Below, one piece after another: positions 2,770 through 41,544 of a stretch of DNA of 44,622 nucleotides. The stretch comes from Kagunavirus BCH953P1. Location: sequence record OZ035754.1; one strand, written 5' to 3'. The first letter of the stretch is position 1; each line of letters opens with the position of its first letter. A program made the position numbers and the translations under genes. Under the pieces are notes generated by a model. The model ran no database searches. It was not told the DNA's origin and was given only the letters and a program-made list of their open reading frames with translations.

Positions 2770-2790
2770 AGCCCCGAAAGGGGCTTTCTT
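2770..2790 (+). terminator. stem-loop after portal gene (agcccc-gaaa-ggggct then ttctt)
   Basis: GC stem with GAAA loop followed by a short T-rich run; seen directly. Confidence 0.3.
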
Positions 2791-2795
2791 ATAGT

Positions 2796-3872
2796 ATGCT
2801 ATTAACTTTAGCGCCACAGGGTTTATCTATGAGATTACTTACATCCCTAATCAGCCACCAGATTTGGCTGCAACGCACCGCATCGGGCGAAGTGAAAGAC
2901 CTTGCGCCTTTCATTAAGGAGATGCGGGACGAAATCAAACGGCAGGTGCTGCTGTTCGGTGACGATGGGCGTAGCACCGCGCGACTGAATAAACTGTTAC
3001 GCGACCTGGAAGAAGCACTGAGCGGACTTACGGGCGACTGGCAAACAAAGCTGACGGAAGACCTTAAGGAACTGGCGGAGTATGAAGCAGAGTGGAACGT
3101 AAAAACGCTGACGGCTAACGTTAACGCGGAATTTGTTACACCCGCCGCCGAGCAGGTGTGGTCCGCTGCCGAGTTTCAGCCTCTGTCGCTAAGCGACAAG
3201 CCTGTCGATTTCACCAAGCTGATGTCGGACTGGGGTGAAACGGAGGTTGCGCGCCTGGTAACTGGTGTTAAGATGGGTTTCGTACAAGGGCAAACCACAC
3301 GGCAGATTGTTAAGAATGTTGTAGGCGCTGGCGGACTGGCCGACATCTCAGAACGTAACGCAGCTACCGTAATCCGCACCGCGCTGTCGCACGTATCCAA
3401 CGAAGCCCGTAACGAGACGTACCGCCAGAACGACGACATCATCGAGAAATACGAATGGGTATCAACGCTGGACAGCCGTACCAGTACGATTTGCAGAGCC
3501 AGAGACGGAATGACGTGGGAAATCGGTAAAGGGCCGATGCCCCCCGCCCATCCGAACTGTCGATCGTGCACGGCACCGGTAATCAGTTCAGAGTTCGATT
3601 TCCTGGATAAAGGCGCGAAACGCGCAGCTAAGGGCGCAGAAGGTGGTACTCAGGTAAGCGCAGACACCACTTACTACGAGTTCCTGAAACAACAACCGGC
3701 ATGGTTTCAGGACCAGGCTCTCGGGCCAACCCGCGGTAAGATTTTCCGCAACAGCGGTATATCGCCGGAGGAGTTTCGCGTAATATCTGTAGATGGTTTC
3801 GGGAATCCGCTCACGCTTAAGCAGATGGCGGAACTCGATAAACGTGTTGCTGATTATCTGAAAGGGGAATAA
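2796..3872 (+). CDS. head morphogenesis protein (MuF / SPP1 gp7-like)
   Basis: 358 aa after portal; conserved gene order; start uncertain (alternative ATG at 2829). Confidence 0.65.
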   Translation: MLLTLAPQGLSMRLLTSLISHQIWLQRTASGEVKDLAPFIKEMRDEIKRQVLLFGDDGRSTARLNKLLRDLEEALSGLTGDWQTKLTEDLKELAEYEAEWNVKTLTANVNAEFVTPAAEQVWSAAEFQPLSLSDKPVDFTKLMSDWGETEVARLVTGVKMGFVQGQTTRQIVKNVVGAGGLADISERNAATVIRTALSHVSNEARNETYRQNDDIIEKYEWVSTLDSRTSTICRARDGMTWEIGKGPMPPAHPNCRSCTAPVISSEFDFLDKGAKRAAKGAEGGTQVSADTTYYEFLKQQPAWFQDQALGPTRGKIFRNSGISPEEFRVISVDGFGNPLTLKQMAELDKRVADYLKGE

Positions 3873-3955: not shown

Positions 3956-3985
3956 AGGCCCCGTTAAGGGGCCTTAGTTTTATTT
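3956..3985 (+). terminator. rho-independent terminator (aggcccc-gtta-aggggcct then T-rich)
   Basis: GC hairpin followed by tagttttattt; sits after the head morphogenesis gene and overlaps the 3' end of the minus-strand ORF 3964..4200. Confidence 0.55.
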
Positions 3986-4200
3986 AAAGAATATCGCGAA
4001 CTTCTTGTAACCCGCTGGCTCGTTGCGCTGACCATGTTCGATAGCAAAACGTTGAACGTTGTTAAAATCGTTCTCTTCCATACCGTCGGTGCAAAAGGTA
4101 AAAAAAAGTTACGTTTGTTTCCGATAAGCACACGGCTCGCAACATCAATGCTGTAAAGTTCTTCGATAGCGCGTACCACGTTTGCAGTAGCTTTGTTCAT
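3964..4200 (-). CDS. hypothetical small protein (78 aa as read; contains an internal A8/T8 homopolymer, alternative frame possible)
   Basis: Track ORF; reverse-oriented inside the structural block; preceded by conserved promoter P1; C-terminal half runs into the terminator hairpin. Confidence 0.4.
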   Translation of the reverse strand: MNKATANVVRAIEELYSIDVASRVLIGNKRNFFLPFAPTVWKRTILTTFNVLLSNMVSATSQRVTRSSRYSLNKTKAP

Positions 4201-4235
4201 TTCTAAATTCCTTATCTCTCGTTTCGATGTAATGA

Positions 4236-4264
4236 ATAGTACCCTATTATATTGGGGTGCGCAA
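4236..4264 (-). promoter_or_regulatory. sigma70-type promoter P1 (TTGCGC-N17-TACTAT), B-family
   Basis: On minus strand TTGCGCACCCCAATATAATAGGGTACTAT; identical over about 33 nt to the copy at 13781..13809; immediately upstream of the minus ORF 3964..4200. Confidence 0.6.
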
Positions 4265-4539
4265 ACTGTTTATTCACCTATTTCAGTTATTCCACTTGAT
4301 TGTAAATGTCGGAATAAACTATTCGAATAGTTGACTTTTCACTGAAAATATGATAAGCTCCACCTGAGCTTGTGAAGTATGAACAAGCGACCGCGGCGCG
4401 GGCAGGTAACGGAGCGGGACGTAAGTCCTGAGTGTAGTTACGCTGACGCGTTCGGAAGGGTCATACTATATTGCTTGTGTAAAAAGTAACTGGTTTACTG
4501 AGATTACGCCGTTTCTATGTTTAAATGATAAGGACTAGC

Positions 4540-4567
4540 GCCCCGCTTTACGGCGGGGCTTTACTTA
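4540..4567 (+). terminator. hairpin (gccccgc-tttacg-gcggggc) followed by tttactta
   Basis: Seen directly; lies just upstream of the spanin gene start. Confidence 0.4.
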
Positions 4568-4583: not shown

Positions 4584-4970
4584 ATGAATCTTAAAGCAAC
4601 TGTCGTAGCAGGAGCATGTTTCATCGTCCTGGCTTACGCACACGGCATCTACCAGTATCGCAGCGGCTGGAACGAAGGCCGGGCGAATCTCGTTTCGCAG
4701 CAACAGCAGAAGGCGCAGGCTGAGTTAGCGAAGAAAACACAACGGCAGCAGCAGGACGAATCAAAGGCTGCCGCTGCTGACAACGAAGGCAAGACGAAAT
4801 CAGAGGTGATTACCCGTGAAGTCGTTAAGTACATTAAAACGCCTGGCCGCAGCGTGTGCACTTTTGACCCTGAGCGCGTGCAGCTCAAGTCCCGCGCCGT
4901 CGCAAACGCAAATTCCATCCCCGGATACGACGATGATGCAGCCACCGTGCAAACTGGCACCGCCAAGTAG
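4584..4970 (+). CDS. i-spanin (Rz-like inner membrane spanin)
   Basis: 128 aa; N-terminal TM segment (VVAGACFIVLAYAHGIY), Q-rich coiled-coil middle; SD AAAGGAGA; contains the embedded o-spanin ORF. Confidence 0.65.
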   Translation: MNLKATVVAGACFIVLAYAHGIYQYRSGWNEGRANLVSQQQQKAQAELAKKTQRQQQDESKAAAADNEGKTKSEVITREVVKYIKTPGRSVCTFDPERVQLKSRAVANANSIPGYDDDAATVQTGTAK

Positions 4971-5865: not shown

Positions 5866-6915
5866 ATGGCAATTACCACTATCGGCGATATCGTAACTGG
5901 CAACATCCCGGTCCTGGCGTCTTATATGACCGAGGACCCGGTAGAAAAAACCGCGTTCTTCCAGTCCGGTATTCTGACCCCGACTCCGTACGCCGCTGAG
6001 ATTGCCCGCGGCCCGTCAAACATCGCTAATATTCCTTTCTGGAAAGCGATTGATACGTCTATCGAACCTAACTACTCGAACGACGTATACCAGGACATCG
6101 CAACCCCTCGTAACGTGCAGACCGGTGAGATGATGGCGCGCGTAGCGTACCTGAACGAAGGTTTCGGCCAGGCGGACCTGACCGCTGAACTGACCAGTCA
6201 GAATCCGCTGCAATCTGTGGCTTCTCGCCTGGATAACTTCTGGCAGCGTCAGGCACAACGCCGTCTGATTGCCACCGCGCTCGGTCTGTACAACGACAAC
6301 GTAGCCGCTACCGATGAATACCATACGCGGAACGATATGGTTATCGACGTGTCTGCTTCTCTGGGCTTCGACGCTGGCGCATTCATCGACGCTACCCAGA
6401 CTATGGGCGATGCGCTGATGGGCAACGGCGGTGAAGTGCTGGGCGCTATCGCGATGCACAGCTTCGTTTATGCGCAGGCGCGTAAGCAGCAACTTATCGA
6501 CTTCATCAAAGACGCCGACAACGACACCTTGTTCGCCACCTACCAGGGCTACCGTGTGATTGTTGATGACAGCATGACTGTGGTCGGAACTGGCCTGAGC
6601 CGTAAGTTCATCTCCATCATCTTCGGCAACGGAGCTATCGGTTACGGTGAAGGCAATCCGTCTAACCCGCTGGAATACGAACGCGAAGCGTCTCGTGGTA
6701 ACGGCGGCGGCGTCGAAACCCTGTGGACCCGTAAGACCTGGCTGCTGCATCCATTCGGCTACAGCTTCACCAGTGCAGTAATCACCGGCAACGGCACCGA
6801 GACGGTCGCACGCTCCGCTTCCTGGCAGGACCTGGCGAACGCCTCTAACTGGAACCGCGTTGTTGAGCGTAAGCACGTACCGATTGCCTTCCTGGTAACT
6901 GGTGTAGGAGCTTAA
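5866..6915 (+). CDS. major capsid protein
   Basis: 349 aa, follows scaffold, followed by strong terminator; high-expression context. Confidence 0.8.
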   Translation: MAITTIGDIVTGNIPVLASYMTEDPVEKTAFFQSGILTPTPYAAEIARGPSNIANIPFWKAIDTSIEPNYSNDVYQDIATPRNVQTGEMMARVAYLNEGFGQADLTAELTSQNPLQSVASRLDNFWQRQAQRRLIATALGLYNDNVAATDEYHTRNDMVIDVSASLGFDAGAFIDATQTMGDALMGNGGEVLGAIAMHSFVYAQARKQQLIDFIKDADNDTLFATYQGYRVIVDDSMTVVGTGLSRKFISIIFGNGAIGYGEGNPSNPLEYEREASRGNGGGVETLWTRKTWLLHPFGYSFTSAVITGNGTETVARSASWQDLANASNWNRVVERKHVPIAFLVTGVGA

Positions 6916-13765: not shown

Positions 13766-13780
13766 TGTTGGTGTAAGTGA

Positions 13781-13809
13781 ATAGTACCCTATTATATTGG
13801 GGTGCGCAA
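13781..13809 (-). promoter_or_regulatory. sigma70-type promoter P2 (TTGCGC-N17-TACTAT), identical copy of P1
   Basis: Same about 33-nt sequence as at 4236..4264; precedes the minus-strand cassette 13765..11351. Confidence 0.6.
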
Positions 13810-26029: not shown

Positions 26030-26284
26030 TTAGTTAGATAATTCGGCTTGAACTTGCTTAATAAGTTCTCCAGCCGTTGTGAAGTCTACAGACAGCCCTT
26101 TAGCGACGTCTTCCGCAAGCACCTTGCGGCCAACTGACCCGAAACCCAGGGTACGGTTTACTTCCGAAACCTTCATAGACCATGAGTAATTAGCCGACGC
26201 CCCTGTGTATTTACAGATGCGAACAGATGAATCGATTGAACCGAGAATCATGGTGTTTACTGACAGTTGAAGTTCGATAGCCAT
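26030..26284 (-). CDS. hypothetical protein (84 aa)
   Basis: Track ORF downstream of promoter P3. Confidence 0.5.
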   Translation of the reverse strand: MAIELQLSVNTMILGSIDSSVRICKYTGASANYSWSMKVSEVNRTLGFGSVGRKVLAEDVAKGLSVDFTTAGELIKQVQAELSN

Positions 26285-26285
26285 T

Positions 26286-26600
26286 TTATAATTCCTTATA
26301 TTGTTGGGGTATGTGCTTACTATAATAGTCTGCTATTAGGGTGTCAACCTGTTTTATAGAGCCAACCACAAAAACATTTGCGCCGCGTTTGCGCATCCGC
26401 TCATGTTCTCGTAGCTGGTGCGGGTCTGGCTTCGTGTTTTCGTCTTTCTTAACCTCGACAAACCATATGATGCCGCCGGGGAGCATTACCAGCAAGTCGG
26501 GGGCGCCGGAGCGCCCCTCGTAGGAAAGTTTACGAACGAGGCCCCCCAGGGCCTCGAATCGGTCTTTCGCGTATTTCTGTACGCGGCCCTCTTTAGTCAT
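26286..26600 (-). CDS. VRR-NUC domain nuclease (PD-(D/E)xK)
   Basis: 104 aa; GAPDLLVM ... FVEVK pattern typical of VRR-NUC. Confidence 0.55.
   Translation of the reverse strand: MTKEGRVQKYAKDRFEALGGLVRKLSYEGRSGAPDLLVMLPGGIIWFVEVKKDENTKPDPHQLREHERMRKRGANVFVVGSIKQVDTLIADYYSKHIPQQYKEL
26319..26347 (-). promoter_or_regulatory. sigma70-type promoter P3 (TTGACA-N17-TATAGT), A-family
   Basis: On minus strand TTGACACCCTAATAGCAGACTATTATAGT; lies in the 3' end of the VRR-NUC gene, upstream of 26030..26284. Confidence 0.55.
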
Positions 26601-26749
26601 GGCCGCAGAGCCCAGGTTATAAACGCCCCACCGAGAACGGCAACGCCAACAAACTTAAAGAACAGGCCATAACAGAACATCGCAGCTATTCCAGCGCCGA
26701 GTAATAGTGCGAGCAGGGCTACTATCGTCCAAAATACAAGCATTGTCAT
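26597..26749 (-). CDS. hypothetical small membrane peptide (50 aa)
   Basis: Read from sequence; hydrophobic (MTMLVFWTIVALLALLLGAGIAAMF...); SD GGGAGGGG; stop overlaps VRR-NUC start. Confidence 0.3.
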   Translation of the reverse strand: MTMLVFWTIVALLALLLGAGIAAMFCYGLFFKFVGVAVLGGAFITWALRP

Positions 26750-26831
26750 AATATGCACCCCTCCCGTTTCGTATGCTCAATCCCGCATCGCGGACAGATT
26801 CGACAGTCTTCTTCATAGACCCAGTAAATTT

Positions 26832-26963
26832 TCACTCCAGCACCCACAGATAAATTGCGATAAACATACCTAATACGGCGACCATCATGCCGTATTGACC
26901 CTCGTGACAGTAGACACCGGCGGCGAATCCCGCCAGTACCGCGATAATCAGTTTACTTAGCAT
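26832..26963 (-). CDS. hypothetical small membrane peptide (43 aa)
   Basis: Read from sequence; hydrophobic; start overlaps DNA polymerase stop. Confidence 0.3.
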   Translation of the reverse strand: MLSKLIIAVLAGFAAGVYCHEGQYGMMVAVLGMFIAIYLWVLE

Positions 26964-29154
26964 AACGCTTCATCTCCGCACCTTCTGCCACAAGAGGGAA
27001 CCCCTCGGCCCAATCAGGTAATTCGCACATTAATTTCTCCAGTTCGGCCACCGTGTACTCGGGGGTGTCCGGAGTTTCGCACACCAGTTCATCGTGTACA
27101 GAAAGCACGATGGGATACCCGCCACCCTCAACATTAATCATTGCATATGCGAGTAAATCACGGCACAGCGCCTGAACAATGTTTTCGCAGGCTTTGCCGC
27201 CGTGCGTGTACAGGGTAGTCCATTGGCGGGTTAACTGGTTTTCACCCTGATACTTGATTCTCACATTCGTGTTTACCCGTCCGTCTTCGTCTGTTTCCTT
27301 TGTCACACTAACGCCGATTCCCGGATACGAGAGGATGCGACCTGACGGCAACTCCATACATAACCACCAACCGGGAACCTTCCTACCGGATGAATCAAAT
27401 TCTACTGTTCTCCAGATTCGGATAGCGCGCTCGCCATTCTTGCGCAGATGTGCCCCCGCCCAAAATTCACGACCCGGATTTCTTACAGCGGCTAAAATAC
27501 CGTCTTTGAGGTCGCGCCAGAACGCTACTGTTTCCGGGTGTGACTCGCGCCACATACGCTTGATTGCGTCGCAGGTGCGCCACACTTTCTTGTCCAGAAT
27601 ATACGATGGTCGGTCATCCTTCTCACCTGGATGCGGGGGGCGCTTGGCTTCCTGAATACGCGCCCACTCATACCCACGTGCGGTAGCAGCCCATATGTGG
27701 TCAGGGAATGTACCGTCCATTGTTTTAGTCATCTCAATAAGGTCGAGGCCTAAGTTTTTGGCGAACGTAACGAACGCTCCTACACCCCCCTCATAGCCGA
27801 GGCCAAGCTCGCAGGCCTTGCCTATCTGTCTGATTTCCTTGAAGTTTTTCTTAATATCATCTGGGTCCATGCCGAACATCTTACCCGCGGTTACGCAGTA
27901 AATATCAAGGCCGGCGCGGAACGTATCGAGCGCGGTTTCTTCACCGGCCAGCCACGCTAAACCGCGACCTTCGACGTTAGAATAATCGGCAACAACAAAC
28001 TTATGTCCTGCTTCCGGTATGATGCAGCTACGCACCGTCGATGCCGTCAGCTTGGCCACGTCGAAACGGCGGTGCGCGCGGCCTTTAAGTAGCGCAGAAA
28101 TGCCTTTATCCAGTTCATCATCGTGATAGTACCCGCGCGCCAGGTTCTGCGGCTGGAAGCCTTTACCTGCCCATCGCAGAGTACGTTTTGCCCCGCCGTA
28201 CTGTAAACACCCCCGACGGCGGTCGTCCGAAGAGCGGCCTAACAACAGCGGGTTATATTTCGTTGATGCGGTGGACGCGGCCCCGAGGCGCATTTCGATA
28301 ATCGTGCGGGCGTCATCCGGTAAGTCCTCGTCCGCCAGCAGGTCGTTAAGGGTAGACTTCTGTGCGTTGTGAATGCGGTGCGCGGGGGCGAGTTCACGCA
28401 GAATCGGAAGGAAGTCCTTTCCGGTAAGCGAGCCGCCGTATTTGCGTTGTGCTTCTTCCTGTAACTGCGCCTTGTGTTTCTCTACGGCTTCAATCGCGGC
28501 TTCCGCCAGTGCAACGTCAACCTTAAACCCGCGGTCGTTGATTAACTGGTCCAATTCCAGTACCCGGTCTTCGAACTCGGAATTACCCCAACGCGGCAGC
28601 TTATGGAATACTTCTCGCATCGCAGTGATGTCGCTCACGGCGTACTTGATGAACAGCGCCCACTCGTCCGGGTGTGTTTCTGCGGTGTAGCGGCGAATTT
28701 TGTAGTTCTTCGGTGTCGGTTTAGAGAAACGCTTAATCAGTGCCTTGCCGCGCTTATCCTTCGCATTGTCAGCGGACACGCCCAGCACTTCGCACAACGC
28801 ATCAAGTGACCCCGGCAGCGCGTGACGAAACGCCCAAATCATCGTATCAATGGTGTTGCTTACCGGAATATCAAAGCCCCAGCAGTGTTTCATGATAAGG
28901 CGATCGAAAAGTCCACCGTTGTGCCACACCATCTTGATGCGGCTGTTTGGCTTAACCAGACGGCGTAACGCGCGGTGCAAATCGCCCGGCATGTCGCTGC
29001 CGTCGGTGCAATCCCATACCTGCACCGGCTCGTCGTCAAAAGCATAGGTACAGATAAGCACTTCGGTAGTTGGGTGTTCAGCGTAGGCGTAGGAACCGAC
29101 TTTCTTTAAATTGGCTTCGGAGAATGTTTCAAAGTCTAAGAACAGGTAACTCAT
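26953..29154 (-). CDS. DNA polymerase, family A, with N-terminal 3'-5' exonuclease domain
   Basis: 733 aa; N-terminal exo I motif LFLDFETFS; C-terminal LSVHDELV motif C-like. Confidence 0.85.
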   Translation of the reverse strand: MSYLFLDFETFSEANLKKVGSYAYAEHPTTEVLICTYAFDDEPVQVWDCTDGSDMPGDLHRALRRLVKPNSRIKMVWHNGGLFDRLIMKHCWGFDIPVSNTIDTMIWAFRHALPGSLDALCEVLGVSADNAKDKRGKALIKRFSKPTPKNYKIRRYTAETHPDEWALFIKYAVSDITAMREVFHKLPRWGNSEFEDRVLELDQLINDRGFKVDVALAEAAIEAVEKHKAQLQEEAQRKYGGSLTGKDFLPILRELAPAHRIHNAQKSTLNDLLADEDLPDDARTIIEMRLGAASTASTKYNPLLLGRSSDDRRRGCLQYGGAKRTLRWAGKGFQPQNLARGYYHDDELDKGISALLKGRAHRRFDVAKLTASTVRSCIIPEAGHKFVVADYSNVEGRGLAWLAGEETALDTFRAGLDIYCVTAGKMFGMDPDDIKKNFKEIRQIGKACELGLGYEGGVGAFVTFAKNLGLDLIEMTKTMDGTFPDHIWAATARGYEWARIQEAKRPPHPGEKDDRPSYILDKKVWRTCDAIKRMWRESHPETVAFWRDLKDGILAAVRNPGREFWAGAHLRKNGERAIRIWRTVEFDSSGRKVPGWWLCMELPSGRILSYPGIGVSVTKETDEDGRVNTNVRIKYQGENQLTRQWTTLYTHGGKACENIVQALCRDLLAYAMINVEGGGYPIVLSVHDELVCETPDTPEYTVAELEKLMCELPDWAEGFPLVAEGAEMKRYAK

Positions 29155-29170
29155 TATTTTCGACCCTTAG

Positions 29171-29194
29171 TAAAAAGGCCCAATGAAGGGCCTT
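29171..29194 (-). terminator. rho-independent terminator after SSB-like gene (minus strand aaggccc-tcatt-gggcctt then TTTTT)
   Basis: Seen directly between 29214 and 29154. Confidence 0.5.
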
Positions 29195-29213
29195 AGTTAA
29201 ATTGATTCGGATA

Positions 29214-29837
29214 TTAGCGGCGACGACGTTCGCGGCGCGGTGCTTCATCTTCGTCGTCTTCGAGGTCATCGACACTTGCAGCAACTTTAGAGCCACCGAA
29301 CGCTTTACCTTCGCCTACGTATTTAATCGCCAGCAGGTTAACACCGAGAACTTTGTATTTCTGGCTGAACCAAATTTCAACGCTTACGTTAGCGACGCAG
29401 CCGCTGTAAACCTGTTCACCTTCAATCTGTTCGCCGTCTACATTGAAGTCCTGCTCTACCTGAGTCTCGCCTTTTTTAGAGGTTACAATCAGCGGTTGTT
29501 TCTGTGCCTTCGCTTTGAAGTAGAAGCCTTCGGGGAAGTCTTCAAACGGATTGTCGCGCTCTGCAATATCTTTAATCGCGCATTTATCCATGTGCTTACC
29601 TTCGCCGTAGTTGGACTTCATCCATTTCTCGGCAGCGGCTGCGCCTAACGCTTCTTCAACTACAGCGTAAACGGTGTCGTAAAGCGCGTCGATTTGAGCA
29701 TGGCCAGACGGCAGGATAATCGTCGCGCTGTACTGGCCTTTAGTGATTGAACCATCATCGTTTTCACGGTCTTTTTCGCGTTCGAATACGTTAACCCATG
29801 CAGTGTTTACTTTACGCAGATTCAGTTTAATACCCAT
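29214..29837 (-). CDS. putative single-stranded DNA-binding protein (DUF2815-like), acidic C-terminal tail
   Basis: 207 aa; acidic tail DDLEDDEDE near C-terminus; sits between polymerase and exonuclease genes; own promoter P4. Confidence 0.45.
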   Translation of the reverse strand: MGIKLNLRKVNTAWVNVFEREKDRENDDGSITKGQYSATIILPSGHAQIDALYDTVYAVVEEALGAAAAEKWMKSNYGEGKHMDKCAIKDIAERDNPFEDFPEGFYFKAKAQKQPLIVTSKKGETQVEQDFNVDGEQIEGEQVYSGCVANVSVEIWFSQKYKVLGVNLLAIKYVGEGKAFGGSKVAASVDDLEDDEDEAPRRERRRR

Positions 29838-29890
29838 CGTGATTTCTCGCTTTTCAGTTTACTCCGGGAACTGCCCGGCCAGTGATTAGA

Positions 29891-29919
29891 ACTATAATAG
29901 CTAACTATTCAGGTGTCAA
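29891..29919 (-). promoter_or_regulatory. sigma70-type promoter P4 (TTGACA-N17-TATAGT), A-family
   Basis: On minus strand TTGACACCTGAATAGTTAGCTATTATAGT in the intergenic gap upstream of 29214..29837. Confidence 0.6.
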
Positions 29920-29923
29920 CACT

Positions 29924-30415
29924 TTATTTGCCGTGATTTTCGTGGAAACCGTACTTAACCTCTGCGGCCTTTCGCGCTGCTATTGCGCCGTCGATAGTTT
30001 CAAAACGTCCGAGATGAATTAGTTTCTTCTCAACTTTTATCTCAGCTCGCCATTTGCCGCGGGTTTTATCGAAACTAACACCCGTCACCCCTGACGTGTT
30101 GTTGCGGGCTAAAGATAAATTACGGCTGTTCTCTTTTCGGGTTGTTTTCCTTAAATTAGAAAGAAGATTATTTTCCCGATTATGGTCAATATGGTCTATC
30201 TCCTCTCCAGGTTGAAGTTTATTTTCAGGGTTCATCATATCCCATATAATTCTATGCGCCAGAAATGTCCTTCCACGTAAACGTACGCACACATAGCCCC
30301 AATTACGGACAGACGCGACCTCGCTCCCAGCGGGTGCACGATTGCTGTTAGTTACGCGCCAATACAACTTACCGGTATTGGTATCATACCTAAAATAATC
30401 TTCCCATTTAATCAT
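29924..30415 (-). CDS. HNH homing endonuclease with AP2 DNA-binding domain (copy 1)
   Basis: HNH motif EIDHIDHNRENN; AP2-like SGVTGVSFDKTRGKWRAEI; start at internal ATG 30415 in ATGA overlap with exonuclease stop. Confidence 0.75.
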   Translation of the reverse strand: MIKWEDYFRYDTNTGKLYWRVTNSNRAPAGSEVASVRNWGYVCVRLRGRTFLAHRIIWDMMNPENKLQPGEEIDHIDHNRENNLLSNLRKTTRKENSRNLSLARNNTSGVTGVSFDKTRGKWRAEIKVEKKLIHLGRFETIDGAIAARKAAEVKYGFHENHGK

Positions 30416-31653
30416 TCCAAATCCTCCTCTGTTACCCCCTTCCACTCAGGTCGTTTGTCGTCCGCCGTTGTAACGCATGGGGCTCCGGGCTTACGCGTGA
30501 TGAAGTTTTTTAGTTCTTCTTCTGGGATAACTTTCAAGGCTGCTGTAGGGGTCATGATTGACTTAGTCATAACTTTATCACCAAATTTAGCAATAACGGC
30601 ATCGGGGTCCGCCCAGGAGCGATTGCCATCCCGCCCTTCAACCAGCTTGTACCCCGGAACTTTCTTACCGGAATGCAACGCGGCAGCCATAGCTTTCTCA
30701 ACCTTGTCGATGTGCTGGCGCAACAACGGCAGCTTCTCATACTCGGCGACGAGTTGCTCTGGCGTCAATTCCAGCGCAAAGTCGTCCTCAAGTTCTTCCG
30801 CCAGTACCGCGTTAACGGTTTTTGTACGCGCGGCGCACTGTTCGGAGAACCGACACCACTGGCAACCATCTACTGACGGCTTGAAGTCCGACGCTTTCAG
30901 GTTCTTCTTGCCACGGAAATACGCATCAAGAGCTAACAGCGCACGTTTCTGTGCAAACTTAGCGAACAGTTCCAGACCTTCAACCGAGATGTCCCACTCC
31001 GACGCACCCCCAGCGTACGGCTGGAAGATGACCAGACGAACCATTGTTATGTTATAACGTCTCTTTAGTCGGCGATAAACACCGAGAGCGTAAAGCATAA
31101 GCTGCTTGTTTTCTTTCGCTTCGACACGATGTCGTCCTGTTTTCAGGTCGCCGATGATAAGCATGTGCTCTTCGGTGTTCGCCAGTTCCTGGACGGCAAC
31201 AAGGTCAGCGGTTCCGAACGTCTCGACACCTTCGTAACCAGGATGCAATACCTCAGTAAGATTGACGCGCATTTCCAGCTTAGCGTAAGTCGCTACGTCC
31301 ATAATCGCTTTGCAGTAGTCGGTGTACTTTCGCACCTGCTCAATCATGTCAGCCGTAATCAGCACCGCGCCTTTCATCGGGCTGATTAGCGCCTTAATCT
31401 GGCCTTTACCCTCATCCAGCACGTAAGCACCGACTTCGCGCTCTAACGGCAGTGCAGTGCCTTTTATGTACTGGTTTAAATGTACCTCAGCTATGGTGTG
31501 ACACGCGGTCCCTGTAACGGCGGCTTTACCTGACGTGTTGGGGATATCTTTTTCACAGGCCAGTGATGCACTGCACGCCAACCATTTCTTAGCACCGGAC
31601 GGTGACAACAGCGCGTGCACATCGTTATTGCCCCTGCGTTCTTTTAATTTCAT
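30412..31653 (-). CDS. PD-(D/E)xK exonuclease (Cas4/RecB-like, DUF2800-like) with C-terminal Cys cluster
   Basis: 413 aa; IIGDLKTGRH...EAKENKQLMLYALG nuclease core; Cys cluster CQWCRFSEQC. Confidence 0.6.
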   Translation of the reverse strand: MKLKERRGNNDVHALLSPSGAKKWLACSASLACEKDIPNTSGKAAVTGTACHTIAEVHLNQYIKGTALPLEREVGAYVLDEGKGQIKALISPMKGAVLITADMIEQVRKYTDYCKAIMDVATYAKLEMRVNLTEVLHPGYEGVETFGTADLVAVQELANTEEHMLIIGDLKTGRHRVEAKENKQLMLYALGVYRRLKRRYNITMVRLVIFQPYAGGASEWDISVEGLELFAKFAQKRALLALDAYFRGKKNLKASDFKPSVDGCQWCRFSEQCAARTKTVNAVLAEELEDDFALELTPEQLVAEYEKLPLLRQHIDKVEKAMAAALHSGKKVPGYKLVEGRDGNRSWADPDAVIAKFGDKVMTKSIMTPTAALKVIPEEELKNFITRKPGAPCVTTADDKRPEWKGVTEEDLE

Positions 31654-32144
31654 CTTTTAACCCCATGATTTTTGTGGAACCCGTAAATCTCTTCTGCTTT
31701 CTTTCTAACGTTTACCGCATCGTCGAAGCTGTCGAAGTATCCTAAATGCTTCAATACCTTGTTTATTTTTATACTTGCCCGCCATCTACCGCGCCTACGG
31801 CACCATGAAACTCCGGTCACACCTGACGTATTTAGCGACGACATTCCAGAATTACGCCGGTTGCCTAGACTGTCAACTTTACGAAGATTAGATATGCGAT
31901 TATTCCTTCTGTCATGGTCTATATGGTCAATCTGGTCGCCGCTACTTAAAACATCATTAGGATTACAAAGTTCCCATATAACACGGTGCACTTTATAGAC
32001 CTTACCTAACACTTGTACCTGTTTATAGCCGTGAACATCATTCGACCCCGCCTCTTGGCCTACCTTTACCTTATCCGAAGGGCTTATCTTCCAAAATAAT
32101 TTACCGGTATCAGGGTCATAGTCAAAAACTTCATGCCAATTCAT
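31650..32144 (-). CDS. HNH homing endonuclease with AP2 domain (copy 2, paralog)
   Basis: HNH motif QIDHIDHDRRNN; AP2-like SGVTGVSWCRRRGRWRASI; ATGA overlaps at both ends. Confidence 0.75.
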   Translation of the reverse strand: MNWHEVFDYDPDTGKLFWKISPSDKVKVGQEAGSNDVHGYKQVQVLGKVYKVHRVIWELCNPNDVLSSGDQIDHIDHDRRNNRISNLRKVDSLGNRRNSGMSSLNTSGVTGVSWCRRRGRWRASIKINKVLKHLGYFDSFDDAVNVRKKAEEIYGFHKNHGVKR

Positions 32145-32413
32145 ACTCTGTTCTCCCACTGGTCGATTAAATGTCTGGTCCGGTGATGACAATGCATAGC
32201 CCAGCCATACATCGACTCGAAGACATAAAAGTCAGGCTTGGCGAATGTCGTGCGCTTAATCTGCGACAAGTGACGGCCTATATCTTTAGGCCGTGGCACT
32301 TTGCCTAAGTACGCCATCTCTTCCATCTGGTGCGCACCGGATGGCGCACGCAATAGCCATAGCGCCTCTGTGCTATCCCGCCGGTCTACGGCGCGGTAGA
32401 GTTGGTAAATCAT
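32141..32413 (-). CDS. hypothetical protein (90 aa)
   Basis: Track ORF. Confidence 0.5.
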   Translation of the reverse strand: MIYQLYRAVDRRDSTEALWLLRAPSGAHQMEEMAYLGKVPRPKDIGRHLSQIKRTTFAKPDFYVFESMYGWAMHCHHRTRHLIDQWENRV

Positions 32414-32456
32414 AATTCCGACCCTCAGTTAAAGCGGCCCGAAGGCCGCGGGATAG

Positions 32457-32975
32457 TTATTCTTCTTCGAAATACTTGTTCTTGATTGCTGTCAGGCGCT
32501 CCAGATACTCAGCCAGGTCTTCGTCTTTAATCGCAGCAATCTTCATCTTCTTACCGGTAAACTCTTCCAGCAGTTCGTCAGAATCGTCGCATGCGGCATC
32601 GCTTGGGCCTTCGTTAATCGCATCGTCGATGGCCTGAATCTGGTTACGAAGAGACTGGTAATCGACTTCTTCTTTATCTTCTTCCGGTTCTGGCGCAGGT
32701 TCCTCTACTTTAGCTTTACGCGGCTTGCGTTTCGGCTTCTCTTCTTCTGCCGGTTTAGTGTCAACTACGTCTTCACCCTCGACCGGGATTTCTTTTGTTT
32801 CTTCTTTTACAACAGTAGGCGTGATTGTTGCAGTTTCTGCGACACCACTGTCGACGTCTTTACCATATGGCGCCGTGATAGCCTTCGGCAGTTCAGTACG
32901 GCGTGCACTGTTCGCAGCAATCAGTTCATGTGCAACTACGAAACGTTCCAGTAATTTTAAGAATTGGTCTAACAT
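32457..32975 (-). CDS. hypothetical acidic protein (172 aa)
   Basis: Track ORF; highly charged central region; first gene downstream of P5. Confidence 0.5.
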   Translation of the reverse strand: MLDQFLKLLERFVVAHELIAANSARRTELPKAITAPYGKDVDSGVAETATITPTVVKEETKEIPVEGEDVVDTKPAEEEKPKRKPRKAKVEEPAPEPEEDKEEVDYQSLRNQIQAIDDAINEGPSDAACDDSDELLEEFTGKKMKIAAIKDEDLAEYLERLTAIKNKYFEEE

Positions 32976-33006
32976 TTGTTTCTCTCCTCTCGTTTGGTAT
33001 GGGCTA

Positions 33007-33035
33007 ACTATAATAGCGAACTATTCACTTGTCAA
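33007..33035 (-). promoter_or_regulatory. sigma70-type promoter P5 (TTGACA-N17-TATAGT), A-family
   Basis: On minus strand TTGACAAGTGAATAGTTCGCTATTATAGT; perfect -35. Confidence 0.6.
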
Positions 33036-33045
33036 TGGGCTTTTC

Positions 33046-33068
33046 TAAAATAATTAATATGGTACTAT
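33046..33068 (+). promoter_or_regulatory. promoter-like element for the HTH gene (B-family -10 block GGTACTATTCAC without a recognisable -35)
   Basis: TACTAT at 33063..33068 with the same flanks as P1/P2/P6; divergent from P5. Confidence 0.4.
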
Positions 33069-33099
33069 TCACATATCAACTGACTAAGGAGTAATTGAC

Positions 33100-33315
33100 A
33101 TGCAACCATCTGAACTAGGCATCCGTGTAGAACAGCGCCGTAAAGAACTCGGCATTTCCCAACGCCGTCTGGCTGTCCTGGCCGGTGTTTCCCAGGGCGC
33201 GATTAACCAGCTGGCACTCGGTGTAACTAAGGACGTCCGCCCGTCGACGTTGTTTAAGCTGGCGGAAGTGCTGCAAGTAGACGCCAAGTGGCTGGCGTTC
33301 GGTGAAGGGGCTTAA
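33100..33315 (+). CDS. XRE-family helix-turn-helix transcriptional regulator (Cro/CI-like)
   Basis: 71 aa; HTH ISQRRLAVLAGVSQGAINQL; SD AAGGAG; opposite orientation to flanking genes. Confidence 0.75.
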   Translation: MQPSELGIRVEQRRKELGISQRRLAVLAGVSQGAINQLALGVTKDVRPSTLFKLAEVLQVDAKWLAFGEGA

Positions 33316-33330
33316 CGCCCCTTTCTTTTT
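33306..33330 (+). terminator. rho-independent terminator (aggggc-ttaac-gcccct then tttcttttt)
   Basis: Seen directly, between convergent HTH and primase genes. Confidence 0.6.
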
Positions 33331-35631: not shown

Positions 35632-35865
35632 TTATTCCAGGTCTTCTAAAGTAGCGGCCATTCCGCGAACTTCAGCAACAGCACTATATTTCCCACCAAC
35701 ATTTTTCACGACACCAGATTTAACCAGCACCTTCAACGACCCTTCAATAATGGCGGAACTATAGTACCTAAAATAACTACGGCGCAAGTCGATAACGCTG
35801 CACGACCCTTTTTTACGTGTTAACGAAACGACTGCCGTGAATACGCGTGACTGGAACTCGGTCAT
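35632..35865 (-). CDS. hypothetical protein (77 aa)
   Basis: Track ORF; C-terminus ends EDLE like two other proteins in this block. Confidence 0.5.
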   Translation of the reverse strand: MTEFQSRVFTAVVSLTRKKGSCSVIDLRRSYFRYYSSAIIEGSLKVLVKSGVVKNVGGKYSAVAEVRGMAATLEDLE

Positions 35866-36032
35866 TTCACATTCTCCTTAATCCACGCTTCCACTTTCTC
35901 CGGGTCAAACGTACCCGGCTGACGGCGGCCCATAATGCGGATACAACAATCCGGGAACTTCCCGCTCTTTAGCCAGTTATTCAGTGTGCGACGAGTAACC
36001 CCGATACGCTCGGCTACTTCATTCTGTGTCAT
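35862..36032 (-). CDS. small HTH DNA-binding protein (AlpA/excisionase-like fold), probable early regulator
   Basis: HTH MTQNEVAERIGVTRRTLNNW; start taken at internal ATG 36032 because the predicted promoter P9 lies at 36066..36093 (track ORF extends to 36065). Confidence 0.5.
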   Translation of the reverse strand: MTQNEVAERIGVTRRTLNNWLKSGKFPDCCIRIMGRRQPGTFDPEKVEAWIKENVK

Positions 36033-36065
36033 TCTCAAACCCTCAGTATCAGTTAACGAAACCAA

Positions 36066-36093
36066 GTATACATTGCGAATAATGGGAAATCAA
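36066..36093 (-). promoter_or_regulatory. candidate sigma70 promoter P9 (TTGATT-N16/17-TATACT) for the minus-strand replication operon
   Basis: Read on minus strand; moderate match. Confidence 0.35.
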
Positions 36094-36182
36094 ACATAAT
36101 CGCACCTATTGACATTATGAAAATCTTCGTTTAAGGTGCTTCTATATCTTAGTTACTTTGATTCCTGTTCACCTTGTAAGAA

Positions 36183-36216
36183 TGTTTAACCCGTGCGTCA
36201 AGCAAAGGGTTAAACA
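36183..36216. promoter_or_regulatory. inverted repeat tgtttaaccc / gggttaaaca (10-bp arms, 14-nt spacer) in the early control region
   Basis: Seen directly. Confidence 0.4.
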
Positions 36217-36370
36217 CAGGCTTACTGAACACGAGAATTATCATAACTTTCCTTCCTTAGTATCTCCGGTTGCCCTGGGCAAGCTATATTCTCATCAACG
36301 GCATATCTCTTAAGTATCTGATTTTCTTAATGTGCCGTAGATTCGCAACCGTAAAAATGTAACCCTTACC

Positions 36371-36394
36371 GGGCGGGCTTAAGGCCCGCCCTTT
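36371..36394 (+). terminator. GC-rich hairpin gggcgggc-ttaag-gcccgccc followed by TTT
   Basis: Seen directly, in intergenic region upstream of P6. Confidence 0.4.
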
Positions 36395-36464
36395 AGTTAC
36401 AAAGTAATAAGAATAAAGGCACGACCCTGCCTGAAGAATCACAACGGCAACGTAACTATTCTCT

Positions 36465-36493
36465 TGCACACCCCAACATAATAGGATACTATT
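36465..36493 (+). promoter_or_regulatory. sigma70-type promoter P6 (TTGCAC-N17-TACTAT), B-family
   Basis: TTGCACACCCCAACATAATAGGATACTAT; near-identical to P1/P2; 25 nt upstream of the first plus-strand early gene. Confidence 0.6.
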
Positions 36494-36517
36494 CACTTAT
36501 CGTAACGAGACAGAGGA

Positions 36518-36712
36518 GTGAGGGTTATGTTTAAGAAGGGTCAGTTGGTGAAGATTTTGGAGACCGGAGAGTTAGCGGTTATCTCATTTATGCACCACAG
36601 AGAATATGAGGTCTATTTTGCTAAATCTTTAACGGAGTCCTATCTCACCGTGCTATACGCGCAAGATATGAAACTCATCGGCAACAATTTTAAATTCAAA
36701 GGGGCGAAGTGA
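36518..36712 (+). CDS. hypothetical early protein (64 aa)
   Basis: Track ORF; SD GGAGTGAGGG. Confidence 0.5.
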   Translation: MRVMFKKGQLVKILETGELAVISFMHHREYEVYFAKSLTESYLTVLYAQDMKLIGNNFKFKGAK

Positions 36713-37944: not shown

Positions 37945-37973
37945 TTGCACACTGAGATAGAATAGGCTACTGT
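37945..37973 (+). promoter_or_regulatory. sigma70-type promoter P7 (TTGCAC-N17-TACTGT), B-family
   Basis: TTGCACACTGAGATAGAATAGGCTACTGT followed by TCATTTACAC as in the other B-family copies. Confidence 0.5.
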
Positions 37974-38004
37974 TCATTTACACAAACGAGAGGAGAGATA
38001 GAAG

Positions 38005-38154
38005 ATGGTTACTTTGATGGTTATGGAGTTTGAAAACAGCGTAGCAACTTACCGTGAGATGACTATGGTGCAGGCGTATCACCTGGCATCAAACGGCAAC
38101 TTCTACAAGGCTCAAATCATCAACGAGTTCGGGGTAATTGACTATGAATTTTAA
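38005..38154 (+). CDS. hypothetical small protein (49 aa)
   Basis: Read from sequence; SD GAGGAGAG. Confidence 0.35.
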   Translation: MVTLMVMEFENSVATYREMTMVQAYHLASNGNFYKAQIINEFGVIDYEF

Positions 38155-41460: not shown

Positions 41461-41482
41461 ATCTATTTTCTGCAATGACTAG

Positions 41483-41511
41483 TTGACTATTACTCTCACA
41501 CCAATTATATT
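41483..41511 (+). promoter_or_regulatory. sigma70 promoter P8 (TTGACT-N17-TATATT)
   Basis: Strong consensus match, directly after the terminator and about 35 nt upstream of 41545. Confidence 0.55.
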
Positions 41512-41544
41512 TACTCCATCGACAACGAGAACGGAGTAGAGAAG

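Follow-up and report, generated by a model that had tools for sequence, protein, structure and literature searches.

Three sites on the minus strand of the replication block of Kagunavirus BCH953P1 each carry a TTGACA and a TATAGT hexamer held 17 nt apart by a spacer that is itself conserved, which raises the question of whether these sites are promoters and what the spacer is being kept for. The sequence analysed (record OZ035754.1, 44,622 nucleotides, hereafter the window) is a near-complete Kagunavirus genome (Guernseyvirinae), that of a virulent siphovirus of Escherichia coli. An earlier, sequence-only reading had described the sites, here called A1, A2 and A3, as a promoter family that divides the block into separately initiated transcripts. 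We find that the conserved spacer is a perfect 14-bp inverted repeat, AATAG-N4-CTATT, and consider it reasonably likely that the three sites are strong promoters of the host RNA polymerase (RNAP) which carry an operator for a phage-encoded, Cro-like repressor. The evidence for promoter function presented here consists of sequence analysis together with comparative tests.

Phages of the genera Kagunavirus and Jerseyvirus have been widely isolated for therapy and for food biocontrol. The predictions made here place three strong promoters and about eight more promoter regions with a putative operator on such a genome, and they name one candidate regulator; the analysis also corrects a published label, offers an explanation for the conservation of the spacer, and supplies compact promoter/operator parts. 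It reveals no new kind of mechanism, since the one proposed is ordinary: host-type promoters with a built-in repressor operator, joined in a genome-wide regulon.

Promoter sequences and their conservation

The three sites and the genes around them are as follows.

26319..26347, minus strand: predicted promoter A1, TTGACA-N17-TATAGT, read from 26347 to 26319 as TTGACAccctAATAGcagaCTATTATAGT; predicted start site (+1) near 26312
29891..29919, minus strand: predicted promoter A2, TTGACA-N17-TATAGT, read from 29919 to 29891 as TTGACAcctgAATAGttagCTATTATAGT; predicted +1 near 29885
33007..33035, minus strand: predicted promoter A3, TTGACA-N17-TATAGT, read from 33035 to 33007 as TTGACAagtgAATAGttcgCTATTATAGT; predicted +1 near 33000
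26030..26284, minus strand: 84-aa protein of unknown function (phrog_11050), first gene behind A1
26286..26600, minus strand: VRR-NUC-like endonuclease open reading frame (ORF) (weak Pfam match; PHROG endonuclease, 6e-33)
29214..29837, minus strand: Enc34/Gp2.5-like single-stranded DNA-binding protein (SSB) gene (Pfam, 3e-15), behind A2
32457..32975, minus strand: 172-aa acidic protein (isoelectric point 4.5; phrog_3127), first gene behind A3

At each site the -35 hexamer matches TTGACA at six of six positions, the -10 hexamer TATAGT scores five of six, and the spacer is 17 nt. A search for the full pattern with up to three mismatches returned these three positions, exactly as they had been claimed, and nothing else in the window, and 100 shuffled sequences returned none. 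Between 22000 and 41900 they are the only sites that match the sigma-70 hexamers at 11 of 12 positions. Under a weighted hexamer score they reach 14.8 bits, which ranks them among the best 0.004% of all positions when both strands of the window are counted, and a single promoter in the window scores higher (41483-41511, 15.0 bits). A ribosomal binding site (RBS) and a start codon follow each site at about 25-50 nt, the leader of the SSB gene after A2 being about 48 nt. The genes behind the sites are also those that the sequence-only reading had named: the gene at 26030, the SSB-like gene and the acidic-protein/HNH/exonuclease unit. This unit runs from 32975 down to 29924 and comprises the acidic protein, an HNH protein, a PD-(D/E)XK exonuclease and a second HNH protein. 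A1 lies within the last 20 or so codons of the VRR-NUC-like ORF and is thus the copy that had been noticed inside the 3' end of that coding sequence. A plus-strand TATAAT on the opposite strand of A1 to A3 was considered as a promoter and dropped, having no usable -35.

The 9-kb block around the sites is matched by 468 phage records, first those of Escherichia Kagunavirus phages and then Salmonella Jerseyvirus at about 80-85%. Ortholog sets of distinct sequences were compared for A1 (n=31), A2 (n=34), A3 (n=39) and a fourth site discussed below, at 33056 (n=36). When the three sites are aligned with relatives, seven other complete genomes (those of five Kagunavirus phages, a Klebsiella relative and a Jerseyvirus) and a 38-kb Kagunavirus partial sequence have all of them at the orthologous positions. 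Among the orthologs the spacer is 17 or 18 nt and the -10 is TATAGT or TATATT.

Two features of these alignments bear directly on function. Among the A2 orthologs, identity starts at TTGACA and continues through the leader, while the sequence upstream is unrelated or mosaic; different genes abut A2 there in relatives, the one in the window being an HNH-AP2 gene (29924..30445). A mosaic joint placed exactly at the -35 is the pattern expected of a functional promoter module. In the 31 distinct A1 orthologs, third-codon positions vary at 3 of 10 places inside the promoter and at 80 of 94 outside it in the same gene (Fisher p=4e-4), so that synonymous change is suppressed and a constraint at the DNA level is added to that on the protein. 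The end of the VRR-NUC ORF differs among relatives, often with a stop directly after the -10 (TATAGT-TAA); in the window it extends ten codons beyond, and the promoter fixes the peptide ...LIAxYYS. Near-consensus hexamers, genes with an RBS downstream, conservation among orthologs, the boundary at A2 and the synonymous constraint at A1 together make it very probable that A1 to A3 are promoters, as had been proposed, and that they are of the sigma-70 type.

A palindrome within the spacer

The inverted repeat AATAG-N4-CTATT occurs in six exact copies in the window against 0.02 expected, and in 11 copies against 1.06 expected when one mismatch is allowed; for nine of the 11, a gene starts no more than 60 nt downstream. 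Outside A1 to A3 the copies begin at 2790, 4235, 4326, 13780, 33056, 36480, 37961 and 41478.

26324..26337, no strand assigned: palindrome in the A1 spacer, at about -25 to -12; putative operator
29896..29909, no strand assigned: palindrome in the A2 spacer; putative operator
33012..33025, no strand assigned: palindrome in the A3 spacer; putative operator, overlapping the -35 (TTCACT) of a candidate plus-strand promoter
33056..33069, no strand assigned: one-mismatch palindrome AATATGGTACTATT, 44 bp from the A3 palindrome and 31 nt upstream of the start codon of the regulator gene described below
36480..36493, plus strand: exact palindrome over the -10 of TTGCAC-N17-TACTAT (8.4 bits), upstream of a block of small plus-strand genes (ATG near 36527)
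37961..37974, plus strand: one-mismatch palindrome with TTGCAC-N17-TACTGT, upstream of the ORF at 38005
13780..13793, minus strand: exact palindrome with TTGCGC-N17-TACTAT, upstream of a superinfection-immunity (Imm_superinfect)/phosphatase cluster embedded in the tail genes
4235..4248, minus strand: exact palindrome with TTGCGC-N17-TACTAT, upstream of ORF 3964..4200
41478..41491, plus strand: one-mismatch palindrome over the -35 of TTGACT-N17-TATATT (41483-41511; 15.0 bits), the strongest predicted promoter of the window
4326..4339, plus strand: one-mismatch palindrome over the -35 of TTGACT-N17-TAAGCT (predicted promoter 4331-4359; 11.5 bits)
2790..2803, no strand assigned: one-mismatch palindrome TATAGTATGCTATT, immediately behind a terminator hairpin (2770-2785) and overlapping the ATG at which ORF 2796..3872 begins

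The conserved spacer had been taken as the signature of the A family; this does not hold, as the palindrome recurs in other promoter-like regions of a different architecture. At 4235 (minus), 13780 (minus), 36480, 37961 and 33056 (all plus) it overlaps a -10-like TACTAT with a gene directly downstream, and at the first four of these a TTGCRC stands 17 nt upstream of the TACTAT. The Jerseyvirus counterparts of this second architecture read TTGACG or TTGCGT-N17-TACTAT. Relative to the best overlapping pair of hexamers, the palindrome is centred at about -18.5, -12.5 or -33.5. The copy at 2790 is kept in relatives and may be a chance match in coding sequence. At 13780 an alternative promoter, ATCACA-N17-TATAAT, was set aside because it is not reproduced at the sister sites. 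A further perfect palindrome of 16 bp, AACTATTCGAATAGTT (4316-4331), has the half-sites swapped (CTATT-N2-AATAG), is invariant in five relatives, adjoins the -35 of TTGACT-N17-TAAGCT from upstream, and overlaps both this -35 and the 4326 palindrome.

The pattern of change among orthologs follows the symmetry of the repeat. At A1, variability is 0-0.04 in the half-sites and 0.21 in the centre; at A2 it is 0.005-0.024 in the half-sites, 0.16 in the centre and 0.15 in the linker between the -35 and the palindrome. With A2 and A3 taken together (about 40 distinct orthologs each), the half-sites vary by 0-0.024, the central N4 by 0.16-0.19 and the linker by 0.15-0.27, the overall range for the linker being 0.05-0.27. 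Among the 39 distinct A3 orthologs the linker is 4 or 5 nt long, giving a spacer of 17 or 18 nt, and the half-sites are invariant. Jerseyvirus retains the half-sites despite differing flanks; its copy at the 41478 position has a mismatch in the other half-site. The 33056 palindrome is nearly invariant across its 36 distinct orthologs.

In a further relative, Cornellvirus VSiP, the SSB gene still has the orthologous promoter (TTGACA-N17-TATCTT) together with the leader, and the 43-kb genome holds no copy of the palindrome at up to one mismatch. The palindrome is therefore separable from promoter function and looks like an added module. In VSiP a related, non-symmetric AATAC-N4-CTAAT-like element occurs at 6338, 7675, 31230, 34371, 34432 and 38065, in equivalent promoter regions. 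An element that is separable in this way and that sits in promoters of different architecture looks like an operator, and we regard the palindrome as probably a binding site for a protein.

The strongest competing account accepts the sigma-70 promoters and holds that the spacer is a functionless relic of the duplication or recombination of a cassette. It draws on real similarities between the sites: the cassettes have a leader motif, AACGAGAGGAG, in common, a promoter with its leader and about 33 codons recurs at a different locus in other phages, a stretch TTGCRCACCCCAAYAT is near-identical at 4235, 13780 and 36480, and the Cornellvirus promoters presumably work without the palindrome. A relic, however, would not be expected to keep its half-sites invariant while centre and linker change (in about 40 orthologs per site and in two genera), nor to freeze the third-codon positions inside A1, nor to keep its symmetry where the register of palindrome and hexamers differs between sites, even orthologous ones (as between 15638 in one relative and 13780 in the window). 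We therefore hold this account to be unlikely.

A candidate regulator

If the palindrome is an operator, a candidate for the protein that binds it is encoded next to A3.

33100..33315, plus strand: 71-aa Cro/C1-type helix-turn-helix (HTH) gene, divergent from A3 (Pfam HTH_3, 7e-13)

Its product is the only XRE-type HTH protein among ten ORFs scanned, and its homologs are found across the Guernseyvirinae. By sequence, the PDB entry that matches it best is 434 Cro, with E=1.7e-7 and an alignment that spans the whole protein; 434 cI, HipB and P22 C2 come next. A single-sequence AlphaFold2 model (pLDDT 84) has five helices, and its top Foldseek match is again 434 Cro (2cro; 42% identity, template modelling score 0.72-0.78), with 434 cI also among the best by fold. 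The Cro protein of phage 434 is itself 71 aa long and binds 14-bp operators whose outer bases are conserved, while the variable centre is not contacted and tunes affinity.

Upstream of the HTH gene, the divergent intergenic region contains two copies of the palindrome at a distance of 44 bp. In a candidate promoter of this gene on the plus strand (TTCACT-16-TAAAAT, 33024-33051), one copy would cover the -35 and the other would coincide with the start of transcription, so that, as read from the DNA, the layout of the 33012 and 33056 palindromes is that of an autoregulated Cro-type gene. On these grounds we give somewhat better than even chances to the 71-aa protein being the binder and acting as a repressor.

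Proposed model and points against it

The data show the sequences themselves, their excess over chance, the way in which they are conserved and the homology of the HTH protein. From these we propose the following model, in which we infer that transcription starts at the sites, that the protein binds the palindrome and that its effect is repression. The sigma-70 RNA polymerase of the host would read A1 to A3. A3 would start the recombination unit of acidic protein, HNH, exonuclease and HNH, A2 would boost the SSB gene, and A1, from inside the VRR-NUC gene, would boost the genes downstream. A dimer of the HTH protein would bind AATAG-N4-CTATT in the 17-nt spacer, at about -25 to -12, and turn the three promoters down by occluding the polymerase. 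As the operator also overlaps the -10 or the -35 of about eight other promoter-like regions, among them the one before the HTH gene, a single small repressor could regulate itself and a large part of the non-structural transcription of a virulent phage.

Several observations weigh against this model. We found no mapping of transcription start sites and no binding data for the Guernseyvirinae in the literature, and the time-course RNA sequencing of phage K1B4 (5-120 min, three expression classes) has a resolution too coarse for start sites (PMC12645636). The palindrome before the HTH gene is degenerate in Jerseyvirus, where the right half only is kept. The recognition helix of the Jerseyvirus protein (SQSLITH) is nearer to that of Cornellvirus (TQSAISH) than to that of Kagunavirus (SQGAINQ), yet it is Jerseyvirus, and not Cornellvirus, that shares the palindrome with Kagunavirus, a comparison that speaks clearly neither for nor against co-variation of helix and operator. 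Outside A1 to A3, the assigned promoters are weak in hexamer score (6-8 bits) and their orientation was taken from the positions of genes, so the argument from three registers rests partly on our own assignments. Finally, what the repeated cassettes have in common goes beyond the palindrome, to leader motifs and, in one instance, some 33 codons, so that shared ancestry accounts for some of the likeness between sites.

Further context for the HTH gene comes from its relatives. The orthologs have 51% identity in Jerseyvirus and 41% in Cornellvirus; nearly all relatives of the protein in IMG/VR are more than 92% identical, and a match at 42% belongs to an unrelated GC-rich contig. In VSiP the HTH gene lies on the strand of the helicase-primase operon and is its first gene, whereas in the window the two converge. 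In K1B4 an HTH gene (008) is expressed early, and the 'DNA-binding' gene 004 and the AAA gene 005 belong to the middle class (PMC12645636).

Other binders and other modes of action

Could the palindrome be bound by a different protein? The candidates are a host transcription factor or nucleoid protein, an HTH_17 protein encoded in the early region (35862..36065), which provides a second HTH gene there, and a NinH-like protein known from the annotation of a relative. If the binder were a conserved host factor, it would be clear why the recognition helix differs between Kagunavirus and Jerseyvirus while the palindrome stays the same. To our knowledge, though, no E. coli factor has a matching half-site spacing (OxyR, ATAG-N7-CTAT; ArgR, TGAAT-N4-ATTCA; TrpR, CTAG; IHF and Fis likewise), and HTH_17 or excisionase-like proteins would be atypical binders of 14-bp palindromes as symmetric dimers. 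It is the Cro-like gene that adjoins two copies of the palindrome, and the only IMG/VR contigs with the composite pattern TTGACA-N4-AATAG-N4-CTATTATA are as long as Guernseyvirinae genomes (24-45 kb for those that are complete). We would put a different binder among the improbable explanations, on a par with the relic.

A less favoured proposal keeps the binding site and changes its purpose, making the palindrome the loading site of an activator or antiterminator, in the manner of lambda Q at its Q-binding element (QBE) or of spacer-binding MerR-type regulators. The palindrome of A1 to A3 does lie between -35 and -10, as do the lambda QBE and MerR operators, and antitermination could serve a block in which a terminator follows the SSB gene and precedes the DNA polymerase gene. 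The A promoters, however, are near consensus, with an optimal spacer of 17 nt (18 in some orthologs) as against 19-20 nt for the MerR type, relatives have no annotated Q-like gene, and elsewhere the palindrome covers the -10 or the -35, which is incompatible with activation. These points make an activating role quite unlikely in our judgement, and occlusion by a Cro-like repressor remains the reading that we prefer.

The motif itself has already been published under another name. In phage fBC-Eco01, seven sites found by PHIRE, with the consensus tgAATAGTa-ccTATTat-T, are listed as phage RNAP promoters (PMC9825357, Table S2); this is the same motif as the palindrome described here. That account mentions neither the dyad symmetry, nor the overlap with sigma-70 hexamers, nor the Cro-like gene, and the equivalents of A2 and A3 are in neither of its promoter lists (PMC9825357). 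Beyond that table entry, 'Phage RNAP promoter', the idea that the motif serves a phage-encoded polymerase deserves hardly any credence, since no RNA polymerase is among the annotated products of the relatives phiWAO78-1, VSiP and Snoke, PHIRE reports repeated words only, and the motif does not look like an asymmetric element of about 20 nt that contains the start site and is independent of sigma-70 hexamers: it is palindromic and falls between such hexamers or on top of them, in several registers; the evidence contradicts the label. Phage VB_EcoS-Golestan also has seven PHIRE promoters (PMC7203180), a resemblance drawn from count and method only.

Transcript layout

Two terminators frame the question of how the block is transcribed.

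33304..33324, plus strand: predicted hairpin and T-run terminator that would end the HTH transcript, where the HTH and helicase-primase genes converge; recorded as a terminator in the annotation of phage Snoke
29194..29170, minus strand: predicted intrinsic terminator, AAGGCCC-ttcatt-GGGCCTT followed by TTTTT, directly after the SSB gene and 16 nt before the start region of the DNA polymerase gene

The first hairpin separates the helicase-primase unit from A3, its T-run serving the plus strand. The second, the one clear terminator on the minus strand, is read from the letters of the window, and no promoter stands between it and the DNA polymerase gene, which is thus probably expressed by read-through; this arrangement suggests that SSB output is high and that transcription reading on into the polymerase gene is attenuated. 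No terminator separates A2 from the HNH gene upstream of it, A1 is an internal promoter, and only A3 follows a hairpin, so that A1 and A2 probably add to read-through transcription. They are best seen as boosters within a read-through array and not as heads of isolated units. Of the proposal that the replication block is split into separately initiated transcripts, the promoters are therefore well supported, while the clean split is not.

The SSB leader contains a hairpin, CCGGGcagtTCCCGG (CCGGG-N5-CCCGG; 29858-29872, minus strand), that is kept in Kagunavirus, Jerseyvirus and Cornellvirus with variation in the loop only. Its folding energy is no better than that of shuffled sequences (z=0.52), and a scan of the whole window against Rfam matched 0 families. 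The hairpin could be a processing site or a site of translational control.

Comparison with known systems

The closest parallel is the Cro/cI system of phage 434. The likeness extends from the protein (a 71-aa, five-helix, XRE-type HTH whose best match is 434 Cro by both sequence and fold) to the putative operators, which measure 14 bp, keep their outer half-sites while the centre varies, lie inside core promoters, and occur as a pair in the divergent region adjoining the regulator gene. The differences are equally clear. The Kagunavirus half-site is AATAG in a 5+4+5 arrangement, that of 434 ACAA in a 4+6+4 arrangement; the operators, at which binding is predicted in Kagunavirus, are spread over about ten promoter regions instead of being clustered at OR and OL; and Kagunavirus has no cI partner, integrase or lysogeny module. 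No cI or integrase is found among the annotated products of the relatives, and the Guernseyvirinae have been characterised as a virulent group for which integrase, repressor and lysogeny genes are not reported (PMC9825357). With no cI or lysogeny partner, the protein would work like Cro and not as part of an immunity switch.

As promoters, A1 to A3 resemble the early sigma-70 promoters of coliphages (T5, T7 A1-A3, lambda PL and PR) in their perfect -35, 17-nt spacer, five-of-six -10, AT-rich upstream sequence and predicted use of the host polymerase. They differ in having an operator-like palindrome in the spacer, and in standing before genes of replication and recombination instead of host takeover.

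A third comparison concerns mobility. In T4-like phages, promoter-early stem-loop (PeSL) modules are promoter cassettes found at mosaic junctions. Here too promoter-plus-leader cassettes are repeated at the borders of exchangeable modules, although the Kagunavirus cassettes have a different sequence and no requirement for a stem-loop. At its broadest, the picture would be of a family of virulent siphoviruses that runs most of its non-structural transcription through a 434-Cro-like protein without cI, with operators at about ten host-type promoters whose cassettes double as recombination joints for swapping modules such as HNH and small early genes; this wider picture we offer tentatively, and think it somewhat more apt to fail than to hold.

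Cassettes and other observations

The promoter, leader and first 33 or so codons of ORF 3964..4200 (MNKA..., 4190-4250, minus strand) recur at the 36480-type locus of ten other Kagunavirus genomes, with 64-73% amino-acid identity over the 33 recurring residues. Operator-bearing promoter cassettes of this kind appear, from their sequences, to be recombination joints that move or duplicate the 5' ends of genes. The leader motif (A)AACGAGAGGAG(A) lies between promoter and start codon in at least five units and resembles an extended RBS/leader cassette travelling with the promoters.

32985-32999: leader motif
36503-36517: leader motif
37984-37998: leader motif
4205-4216, minus strand: leader motif
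41520-41535: leader motif

Behind the predicted promoter at 4331-4359 lies a stretch of about 190 nt (4372-4560, plus strand) whose sole ORF is 36 aa long (4379..4489), and a strong terminator (4540-4559) precedes the next gene at 4584; the region could encode a small protein or a small RNA.

On the minus strand the exonuclease gene is flanked by two paralogous genes for HNH-type homing endonucleases, 29924-30445 and 31650-32192, whose products are 48% identical over 161 aa; one or both are absent from several relatives. HNH_3 and AP2 domains are confirmed by Pfam for 29924-30445 only. The divergent early blocks are separated by a gene-poor region of about 450 bp (36066-36517). A strong hairpin that looks bidirectional (36371-36391) and a number of weak promoter-like sites are found there, and an origin or a non-coding RNA might be located in this region.

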